In this document: piece after piece, positions 1-3,000 of the stretch | Position numbering within the stretch: position 1 is the first letter of the stretch | Layout of the letters: each line of letters begins with the position of its first letter | IMG/VR virus record: IMGVR_UViG_2534681935_000037 | Location: 1-6,236 of that record | Length of the DNA: 6,236 bases | From: a virus | Lineage: Duplodnaviria; Heunggongvirae; Uroviricota; Caudoviricetes | Strand: one strand, 5' to 3' | Program-made: the position numbers

Positions 1-3000
1 CATTATGTCGTGGTTGAGCGGGATGAAAAGTACATGGCGAGTTTTGACGAGATGGTGCCGGAGTTCATCGAAAAAATGGACGAGGCACTGGCTGAAATTG
101 GTTTTGTATTTGGGGAGCAATGGCGATGAAGCATCCTCACGATAATATCCGGGTAGGTGCGATCACTTTCGTCTACTCCGTTACAAAGCGAGGCTGGGTA
201 TTTCCCGGCCTTTCTGTTATCAGAAATCCCCTGAAAGCACAGCGGCTGGCTGAGGAGATAAATAATAAACGGGGAGCTGTATGCACAAAGCATCTCCCGT
301 TGAGTTAAGAACGAGTATCGAGATGGCACATAGCCTCGCTCAAATTGGAGTCAGGTTTGTGCCAATACCAGTAGAAACAGACGAAGAATTTCATACGTTA
401 GCCGCATCCCTTTCACAAAAGCTGGAAATGATGGCGGCGAAAGCAGAAGCAAACGAGAGAGACCCGGCATGACAACAACAGAATGCATTTTTCTGGCAGC
501 AGGCTTCATATTCTGTGTGCTTATGCTTGCCGACATGGGACTTGTTCAATGACACCTCAGCAGGAAAACGCCCTTCGCAGCATTGCCCGTCAGGCTAATT
601 CTGAAATCAAAAAAGCCAGACAGCAGTTTCCGGATAAAAACGTCGATGACATTTGCCGTAGCGTACTGAAGAAGCACCGCGAAACGGTAACGCTAATGGG
701 ATTCACACCGACTCATTTAAGTCTGGCGATCGGCATGTTAAACGGCGTCTTTAAGGAGCGATGAACATGAAAAGCAAAATCATCAGGGAGCTACAGGCTC
801 CTTTTTTATTGTTCGCATTCACCCTCAAGCGTATTAACCAACAATTCAGGGATTAATGAAAGATGGCAGACATCATTGATTCAGCATCAGAAATTGAAGA
901 ATTACAGCGCAATACAGCAATAAAAATGCGTCGCCTGAACTACCAGACTGTATCCGCAACTCATTGTTGTGAGTGTGGCGATCCGATAGATGAACGAAGA
1001 CGCCTGGCAGTTCAGGGTTGTCGGACTTGTGCAAGTTGCCAGGAGGATCTGGAGCTTATCAGTAAACAGAGAGGTTCGAAGTGAGCGAAATTAATTATCA
1101 GGCACTGCGTGAAAAGGCAGAAAAAGCAACTAAAGGAAGCTACATCGTAGGGCATACATCTGTTAACCAGCACGGCAATTTAACAGGAGTTTTTGTTTGC
1201 CAAAAATGGAAAGGAGAACCCGGTGGCGTGATTGCGGAATGTCATGTTAACTGCCTGATTGAATCAGATGCTCAGGCTTATGCAAACGCTGAATTCATAG
1301 CAGAGGCTAACCCGGCTACCGTGCTGGAACTGCTGGATGAACGGGAAAGAAACCAGCAATACATCAAACGCCGCGACCAGGAGAACGAGGGGATTGCGCT
1401 TACGGTTGGGAAGCTGCGTGTTGAGCTTGAAGCAGCAAAATCAAAACTCAACGAGCAGCGTGAATATTACGAGGGAGTAATCGCGGATGGAAGTAAGCGC
1501 ATAGCAGAACTGGAAAAACAATGCGCCGAATGGGAGCGAAAAGCATTAAGCAACTTTGAAGAGTGTGCTGCGATGGCTGAACGTATCGAAGAGATGCAGA
1601 CAAAATCTGCACCAGATTCGTTTGGCATCATCGGTGAAAATATTCGAACACAGGACAATCGAATAACGTCAGATCCCATGTTTTGTGTGTATCAAAAGCG
1701 CGAAATCGCTGTTGATGCTGATTATGACCATGACCGGATTGTCTGGGTTGACGAAGATGGCAATGAAGCCAATAAACGCCATAGTCGTCGTCTCGAGCTA
1801 CTTCATGAAAACTTTCGAGAGCCACCAGAAAAATGGCGGCGCGTTGCTGTGAAAGATATTGATGAATTCGTTACCTGCTGTTTCACCGAACAGGGTTGTA
1901 AAGACTACCTGGCAGTCAATGGTCACAATCTTCGCTTGCCATTTATATATGTAAAAAGCGGTTTCAGGAACGCTGAATATATCGGCATAAGAAACTGGCT
2001 TGCTGGCATTCGCATCAAAGGAGAGTGATATGGCGTTAACACACCGCGAACTCTGTCAGATTGCGTACAAGTTCCTTAAGCGCAACGGTTTCAAGGTTTG
2101 TTTTCATGACCGCTTTATAGCTGTAACCAGTACCGGAGAACAGCCAGATGCTATGGGATTCAGAAATTCAGCATCATGCCTGATAGAGGCGAAATGTTCT
2201 CGTGCTGACTTGTTGGCAGATAGAAAAAAGCGTTTTCGTAAAAATCCGTCTCTTGGAATGGGCGACTGGCGATTCTTTATTAGTGAGCCGGGAATTATTT
2301 CAATTGAGGATTTACCACCTGGCTGGGGATTACTTCACGTTGTTAACGGAAGAGTACGGAAAGTACATGGGTGGCCCAAGGGTAATTGCTGTTGGGGTAA
2401 TCCTGACGATAAGCCATTTACTGGAAATAAGCAGGTTGAATGCGATTACATGTTGTCTGCATTAAGGCGCATGGAGTTGAGAGGGCACCTTAATGAAATA
2501 TATGACGGTGTAATTGTTAATAAGAAAGAAGGAAACGCGGCATGACCACTATTACCGACAAAGAACTGATTAAAGAAATCAAAGAGCGCATAGGCAGCTT
2601 GGACGTTCGAGACAATATTGAGCGCCGTGCTTATGAAATTGCACTGGCATCGCTGGAAGCAGAACCGATAGCGTGAGAATGCGGTGAAAACATAATCCTG
2701 TTTAACCCTGACACAGTTGAAGCATACGCAAAACGTGCGGAAATATCACCTAAACCACTATTCTCCGCGCCGCCAGCGCTGGTAGTGCCTGATAAGTTGC
2801 CGCGTGAATACAGAAACGGTTGGCCTCTTGCGTATAGTGATTATGCTGAAGGCTGGAACGACTGCCGCGAAGCCATGCTTCAGGGAGATAAATCATGATT
2901 AATCGTATCAAGCTGGAGCACATCCTCGAATATGCCAGGCAGCAGAGGCATATTGGTCAGCATTGTAAAATTCCACCAGGAGATATGGTTGAAATCATGG

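Follow-up and report, generated by a model that had tools for sequence, protein, structure and literature searches.

The nearest characterised relatives of the gene described here belong to the MmcB-like family (PF06319, formerly DUF1052/COG5321). MmcB of Caulobacter crescentus has been described as an SOS-regulated PD-(D/E)XK endonuclease that the cell requires to withstand mitomycin C and cisplatin (PMC9578287), and the solved structure of the family is 3DNX, the SPO1766 protein of Ruegeria (Silicibacter) pomeroyi. DUF1052 has been linked to archaeal junction resolvases, and its members were predicted to be active nucleases, with gene neighbourhoods that gave no functional clue (PMC1189080). 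The gene that we compare with these proteins lies at positions 2030–2545 (+ strand, stop codon included) of a 6,236-nucleotide stretch of Caudoviricetes DNA (IMG/VR record IMGVR_UViG_2534681935_000037, positions 1 to 6,236; hereafter, the window). It encodes 171 residues, and its definition as the coding sequence of an MmcB-like/AHJR-related protein with a PD-(D/E)xK nuclease fold is based on the list of open reading frames (ORFs), the sequence, the homologues and a structural model.

The window is 100% identical to the Shiga toxin 2 (Stx2)-converting phage 1717 over positions 1–3941 and 5252–6236, and phage 1717 carries an identical coding sequence (ACI43103.1). The locus corresponds to the early-left (exo-xis/ea) arm found in lambdoid prophages; in phage 1717 its genes follow one another as kil/cIII, gam, bet, exo, DUF1382, orf61-like, TraR/DksA zinc finger, Ead/Ea22-like, the nuclease gene, a 44-aa ORF, DUF551, orf114 and int. 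A first-pass annotation made from the sequence alone had described the gene as an accessory gene with a PD-(D/E)xK nuclease-like signature and a Cys-rich tail. As judged by the homology searches and the model presented below, it very probably encodes a DNA-cutting enzyme of the PD-(D/E)xK fold related to MmcB.

Predicted fold and family placement

A model of the protein was obtained with AlphaFold2 from 34 homologues, with a mean predicted local distance difference test (pLDDT) value of 84.8, a predicted template modelling (pTM) score of 0.78 and disorder confined to the last eight residues. It comprises a helix (residues 5–18), three strands (22–25, 41–45 and 48–54), a second helix (58–64) and a further strand (80–85), and has the alpha-beta-beta-beta-alpha-beta core of PD-(D/E)xK enzymes. 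The signature residues take their expected places in this core, with D40 directly preceding strand 2 and E53-x-K55 at the end of strand 3. When the model was compared with the PDB by Foldseek, 3DNX was the sole match below E 1e-3 (E 7.3e-6; template modelling scores 0.60/0.69), so that structural similarity to the solved member of the MmcB-like family was apparent. Next in rank were Hjc proteins, the R2 retrotransposon endonuclease domain, AF1548 and Bax1. Among the viral models of BFVD, several annotated as phage ‘MmcB-like DNA repair protein’ were recovered with E values from 1e-4 to 1e-7. Taken as a prediction from sequence and modelling, the PD-(D/E)xK (restriction-endonuclease-like) fold is well supported.

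Over its full length, the window protein belongs to phrog_9263 and phrog_631 (E 2e-123 and 1e-94), both of which are labelled ‘unknown function’ and record neither the fold nor the link to MmcB-like proteins; it also matched phrog_5429, ‘DNA repair protein’, weakly. Used as a single sequence in a phmmer search of PDB sequences, it gave chance-level matches only. Scanning 42 distant relatives singly yielded weak matches to Hjc PF01870 (16 relatives), MmcB-like PF06319 (nine, the best at E 2.9e-4), UPF0102 (two) and AHJR-like (two), all four of which are PD-(D/E)xK families. The family profile found 3DNX among PDB sequences at E 1.9e-4, and in this alignment ...PDviGf...lieckvSRsDFlaDkk of the profile faces ...VDVMGL...VIECKSSRADFQADAK of 3DNX. 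With Sulfolobus Hjc the E value was ~0.5, and D40, E53 and K55 fell on D42, E55 and K57 of Hjc. An hhalign comparison with 11 PF06319 proteins gave a probability of 97.1% (E 4.9e-11, 57 columns); these 11 sequences, obtained in a search seeded with the 3DNX fragment, are short N-terminal fragments, and the comparison thus covers only the core. In the profile alignments, D40 pairs with the D of the MmcB-like string ‘RVDV’, and E53-x-K55 with the MmcB-like ECK.

The two families have in common their size (~150–170 aa), their organisation as stand-alone single domains and the string D ... E-[CVA]-K-x-S-R-x-D-F-x-x-D. The MmcB-like consensus is also without an acidic residue in the stretch aligned to helix 1. 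By contrast, H5, E37-x-P-D, G76-M-G-D-W-R81, W99-G-L, E137 and R146-R147 are conserved features of the phage family’s own, and its members are carried by phages and prophages, whereas MmcB is a chromosomal SOS gene. The window protein gave no match to the curated PF06319 model even at E ≤ 1, let alone at its gathering score. The fold is shared with Hjc and Hje (PF01870; PDB 1HH1, 1OB8, 2WCW), whose catalytic residues align with those of the phage family, but the catalytic Glu of Hjc helix 1 is not conserved there, the phage protein has ~50 additional C-terminal residues, and the combination of a PF01870 model match and close structural similarity that would define an Hjc protein was not found for the window protein. 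Rap/NinG and RusA are likewise phage accessory nucleases for recombination intermediates, and homologues of the present gene occur in the same nin-like regions of some prophages; against the NinG and RusA Pfam models, the window protein gave no match and no homology was detected.

Profile homology to MmcB-like proteins, together with the weaker links to Hjc, places the phage family at the sequence level as a sister of the MmcB-like family (PF06319/DUF1052) within the archaeal-junction-resolvase-like branch, outside the curated boundaries of PF06319. This placement fits the earlier analysis of DUF1052 (PMC1189080). New and uncurated, with an evident nearest neighbour inside a familiar superfamily, the family does not amount to a new type of system; specialists would expect to find a small nuclease in the early region of a phage.

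Conserved residues and motifs

The ORF and all the peptide strings from which the first-pass annotation had derived its signature are present in the window. The helical string THRELCQIAYKFL corresponds to residues 4–16, GEQPDAMGF to 36–44, LIEAKCS to 51–57, KGNCCWGN to 117–124 and ECDY to 137–140; E53 lies 13 residues past D40 and 14 past P39. By itself, the PD...ExK motif is no more than chance would provide, as in 20,000 shuffles of the protein PD-x(8,30)-[DE]-x-K was found in 6.9% and D-x(8,30)-[DE]-x-K in 64%. It is conservation that makes the motif real.

The family is large: when clustered at 50% identity, its relatives amount to 2614 representatives at E ≤ 1e-3 and to 1389 at the stricter E ≤ 1e-10. 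Conservation was determined in an alignment of 326 sequences, namely the query and 325 relatives of 140–300 residues, to which all counts below refer. D40, the predicted first catalytic acid, is kept in 323 sequences, E53 in 320 and K55 in 319 (each at least ~98%). These three residues are also intact in all the phage homologues examined (Cba120 gp083, SSP002 gp061 and the X29 homologue). On the DNA, the codons of E37-Q-P39-D40 occupy 2138–2149 (+) and those of E53-A-K55, the (D/E)xK element at the end of strand 3, occupy 2186–2194 (+); both assignments combine conservation, the model and the alignments. E37 is a conserved acid specific to the family (320), and P39 and H5 are kept in 304 and 311 sequences, respectively. 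The fold with D40 and E53-x-K55 that the first-pass annotation had proposed was therefore borne out by Foldseek, by hhalign and by these near-invariant residues; the profile and structure searches assigned a nuclease fold and no other.

Downstream of the ExK element, the codons of S57-R58-A-D60-L-L-A-D64 (2198–2221, +) specify the SRxD(F/L)xxD helix motif common to the MmcB-like family, which was identified by conservation, hmmsearch and hhalign and, in the latter two, matches ‘SSRADFQSD’ of PF06319 proteins. Here, S57 is kept in 299 sequences, R58 in 310, D60 in 320 and D64 in 317, and further conserved positions are K67 (320), R70 (318), R81 (324) and W99 (323). Towards the C terminus, a helix spanning residues 134–150 in the model contains E137 (309), R146 (296) and R147 (302) as conserved residues (2438–2470, +), and it may provide a DNA-binding element or an accessory element of the active site.

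The acidic residue that had been noticed in the predicted first helix exists as E7, but is not a conserved feature: of the 326 sequences, 184 have Glu and 58 have Asp at this position, while H5 and E37 are conserved instead. An acidic residue in the first helix is found in many but not all PD-(D/E)xK families.

Distribution, proposed function and alternative readings

Of 5426 complete E. coli genomes, 931 (~17%) contain the nucleotide sequence of the gene, in up to six places per genome, and 250 of the 1300 places are on plasmids. Among phages, 137 records carry it with an identity of ≥95%, most of them Stx1- and Stx2-converting phages. All E. coli and Stx-phage copies among the matches listed are annotated as ‘hypothetical protein’. 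A block at 2002–2556 (+) is common to the window and phage P7 (upf89.0), with 99.1% nucleotide identity in a blastn comparison with P7 locus 4973–5527, whereas the flanks diverge except for three short patches, and the edges of the block coincide with gene borders. Since the identity with P7 is confined to the gene, it moves as a one-gene cassette. The sharing between P7 and the Stx phages is the result of a recent exchange in which a single gene passed between lambdoid prophages and a plasmid prophage. Neither lambda nor phi24B has the nuclease gene, which, together with the cassette in P7, agrees with its earlier description as an accessory gene.

At the protein level, a relative was found in 644 phage records, including virulent Ackermannviridae and many Vibrio phages. 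By tblastn, homologues were seen in many genomes of Ackermannviridae size, ~157 kb. In Cba120, the homologue gp083 (locus 4980–5597) is directly upstream of the primase gene; this protein has a ~35-residue insertion ahead of its last helix. In Vibrio phage SSP002 the homologue comes after genes for a DnaC-like loader, a polymerase and two helicases, and in Vibrio phage X29 it is flanked by a DUF551 gene on one side and DUF1064 on the other, with exonucleases and a RusA-like gene close by. Prophages of Microbulbifer and Pseudohongiella carry it ahead of their lysis genes, with the replication genes on one side and YbcO or DUF968 on the other. A genome scan with a narrower alignment gave 36 loci, all from Proteobacteria (Gammaproteobacteria and a few Alphaproteobacteria).

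We also performed a Pfam-based census of 120 neighbours on ~50 diverse viral contigs, plus 47 neighbours of close enterobacterial relatives. The families matched among the 120 neighbours were NinB, NinG, YbcO, SSB, SNF2 and DnaB helicases, RecA, DNA methylases and Lar, and, further, dUTPase, thymidylate synthase, MazG-type pyrophosphohydrolase and Ead/Ea22. The surroundings of the close enterobacterial relatives were equally mosaic; DUF551 accounted for three of the 47 neighbours, and its adjacency to the gene is limited to some enterobacterial prophages and X29. Whether the phage is temperate or virulent, the gene is consistently surrounded by genes for replication, recombination and nucleotide metabolism, which suggests a role in the phage’s own DNA transactions. 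The roles suggested by the first-pass annotation (recombination, host DNA attack or exclusion) were generic, and of these the context favours DNA replication, recombination and repair over exclusion.

Given this context and the relationship to MmcB, we lean, with moderate confidence, towards a small stand-alone metal-dependent (most likely Mg-dependent) endonuclease that cuts damaged or branched phage DNA in an accessory role. The active site would be formed by D40, where strand 2 begins, and E53-x-K55, where strand 3 ends, aided by the family-specific E37 and possibly by H5 or E137, while the conserved basic residues R58, K67, R70, R81 and R146-R147 would hold the DNA backbone. To judge from its operon position, the gene would be read on the early-left (pL) transcript downstream of gam-bet-exo, and the enzyme would consequently be made after induction or infection. 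Its substrates may be stalled forks, recombination intermediates and lesions, the processing of which would keep phage DNA replication and recombination going, with the enzyme being accessory and not essential.

Several observations weigh against this proposal. The window protein had no Pfam match at E ≤ 1, no NCBIfam match and no PADLOC match, and we infer both the catalytic activity and the substrate for the phage family. The predicted active-site geometry comes from secondary structure and alignments only, and, with a helix-1 acid that is not conserved, the metal site may differ from the textbook arrangement. Moreover, phage 1717 is already equipped with Red exo/bet/gam, NinB and NinG/Rap, as X29 is with a RusA-like protein; there is no missing function for the product to fill, and lambda and phi24B manage without it. 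Finally, neither the 120 diverse nor the 47 close neighbours included a recurring partner gene, and no pathway-specific association was found among them.

A narrower version of the proposal, which draws on analogy with MmcB, is that the product is the phage counterpart of this cross-link repair nuclease and rescues prophage DNA from the inducing damage. Stx prophages are as a standard induced with mitomycin C, an agent that cross-links the prophage template too. If this were so, an early-left nuclease would unhook or cut the cross-links and thereby allow replication, and hence Shiga-toxin production, to proceed, and in virulent phages it would serve in general replication-fork repair; we consider such a specialised role rather improbable. 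Should a repair role be true, the replication of Stx prophages after exposure to DNA-damaging antibiotics could be influenced, with a bearing on toxin output. As regards annotation, a very common ‘hypothetical’ gene of Stx phages, P1/P7-type plasmid prophages and virulent phages gains a testable annotation and residues to mutate.

Other activities are conceivable for a protein of this fold. A true Holliday-junction resolvase, i.e., a dimeric Hjc-type enzyme that debranches DNA before packaging and duplicates or replaces Rap/NinG or RusA, would account for the PF01870 matches of the distant relatives, for the alignment of D40, E53 and K55 with the Hjc residues, and for the Hjc and Hje structures among the fold matches. 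It would also suit two marine prophages that carry the gene in a nin-like region, the site of the lambdoid resolvase, with no RusA or NinG called within the 16-kb loci. However, NinG coexists with the gene in phage 1717 and a RusA-like gene stands beside the homologue in X29, which argues that the product is not the resolvase of those phages; the differences from Hjc in helix 1 and at the C terminus point the same way, and the similarity to Hjc is far weaker than that to 3DNX, all of which makes a resolvase unlikely. A comparably low probability is given to an offensive or exclusion nuclease directed against host DNA or competing phages and plasmids, that is, a defence or anti-defence moron. 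It would be in keeping with the mobility of the gene as a single-gene cassette within an accessory region that is highly mosaic, with as many as six copies per E. coli genome, with the occurrence in P1/P7-type plasmid prophages and with the many restriction or CRISPR-ancillary nucleases among the PD-(D/E)xK fold matches, and the homologue-bearing Ackermannviridae, whose DNA is modified, could in principle tolerate encoding a nuclease against host DNA. Temperate lambdoid DNA, in contrast, is unmodified, and an unspecific nuclease would cut the phage’s own DNA too. Neither the nuclease protein nor its neighbours matched PADLOC-DB 2.0 at E ≤ 1, no specificity, sensor, immunity or modification partner was found nearby in any of the contexts, and the gene is conserved within the replication modules of virulent phages. 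Further, it lies in the repressed early-left operon and has no promoter-like site of its own, so that a lysogen would not express the nuclease for exclusion.

The lack of conservation of the helix-1 acid would also be compatible with a catalytically silent PD-(D/E)xK domain that acts only by binding, to DNA or to a host protein, and modulates the lysis–lysogeny decision, as has been reported for other exo-xis proteins. We judge this very unlikely, as the near-invariance of D40, E53, K55 and E37 over hundreds of clusters is what selection on catalysis would be expected to leave, and homologues are also carried by phages that are strictly virulent and so face no choice of lysogeny. The exo-xis experiments that would suggest such a role used lambda and phi24B, both of which are without the gene, and this literature was consequently set aside as a guide to its role. 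As for the Cys-rich tail, its cysteines are indeed present, with C120, C121 and C138 within the last 52 residues, and an essential zinc-binding or redox module could be imagined there. Conservation speaks strongly against it: C120 (with C121 forming the CC pair, codons at 2387–2392, +) is Cys in 73 of the 326 sequences, Cys does not rank among the three commonest residues at position 121, and C138 (codon at 2441–2443, +) is Cys in 118. Relatives at 70–85% identity have GNALW or GNAVW where the query has GNCCW, i.e., the pair is specific to the closest relatives and was not taken as functional. In addition, a standard zinc site takes more than three Cys with no His to partner them, and four conserved Cys/His ligands were not found. 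A metal-binding tail was rejected on these grounds, and the idea retains almost no credibility with us.

Operon setting, neighbouring genes and IS629

In the window, the ATG start of the nuclease gene is at 2030 and its TGA stop at 2543–2545. A Shine–Dalgarno sequence, GGAG, can be read at 2020–2023 (+), six bases 5´ of the ATG. The mechanical ORF list had placed the start at TTG 2000; this was overruled in favour of the ATG, at which the homologues and the GenBank record of phage 1717 begin.

Upstream, in the same operon, lies a gene for an Ead/Ea22-like protein of 315 aa (1081–2028, +; Pfam PF13935, E 3.3e-41), the stop codon of which (2026–2028) ends one base 5´ of the nuclease ATG. Downstream, the nuclease stop overlaps, as ATGA, with the start of a 44-codon ORF (2542–2676, +) identified from the sequence and from PHROG matches, which span just the first ~50 positions of longer families. 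Next in the operon is a DUF551 gene (2895–3245, +; 116 aa; Pfam PF04448, E 4.9e-10). On the + strand, neither a promoter-like nor a terminator-like site was found from position 1207 to a weak stem at 3128, within the DUF551 gene, and the first clear terminator-like stems are at 3362–3413. With tight junctions and no promoter or terminator in between, the nuclease gene looks like one cistron of a longer operon. Its coupling to an interrupted ORF and the DUF551 gene, already pointed out in the first-pass annotation, is visible in the sequence. Between 1900 and 2700, no Rfam family and no repeat was detected.

The 44-codon ORF ends at an in-frame TGA (2674–2676) where its relatives have a Trp codon (…LEAEPVAW…), and phage 1717 shares this stop. 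Its frame stays open for 73 codons beyond the TGA, to 2898, where its end overlaps the start of the DUF551 gene as ATGA. It looks like the N-terminal fragment of a longer gene interrupted by a nonsense mutation.

The Pfam match of the Ead/Ea22-like protein is limited to residues 2–145, and its C-terminal ~170 residues match only PHROGs of unknown function (phrog_3205). Three fusion proteins of Salmonella enterica (P0091, P0104 and P0097) consist of a short Ead/Ea22-like N-terminal peptide with low-complexity repeats (QHLQ/NRQ), the nuclease domain and an ELELEL repeat, and in two others (P0009 and P0100) longer Ead-like parts are joined to nuclease domains without helix 1. A functional link between Ead/Ea22 and the nuclease was considered from these fusions and discarded; with only a short peptide and repeats in some and helix 1 lost in two, they were read instead as products of mosaic recombination. 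A further protein of 428 aa (P0143), encoded at 7086–8372 of a metagenome contig, has a weak TniB/AAA-type N-terminal region and a C-terminal nuclease domain; its gene adjoins those for a large TPR protein and DNA methylase-like proteins, a setting unlike the phage contexts.

Relative to phage 1717, the window contains a copy of IS629 (1310 bp, 3942–5251) between orf114 and int, flanked by a 3-bp target duplication. Its orfA and orfB are at 3996–4322 and 4319–5209, respectively, and the Rfam ALIL pseudoknot (RF01497, 121.5 bits, 4277–4393), the programmed-frameshift signal of this IS3-family element, extends across the overlap between them.

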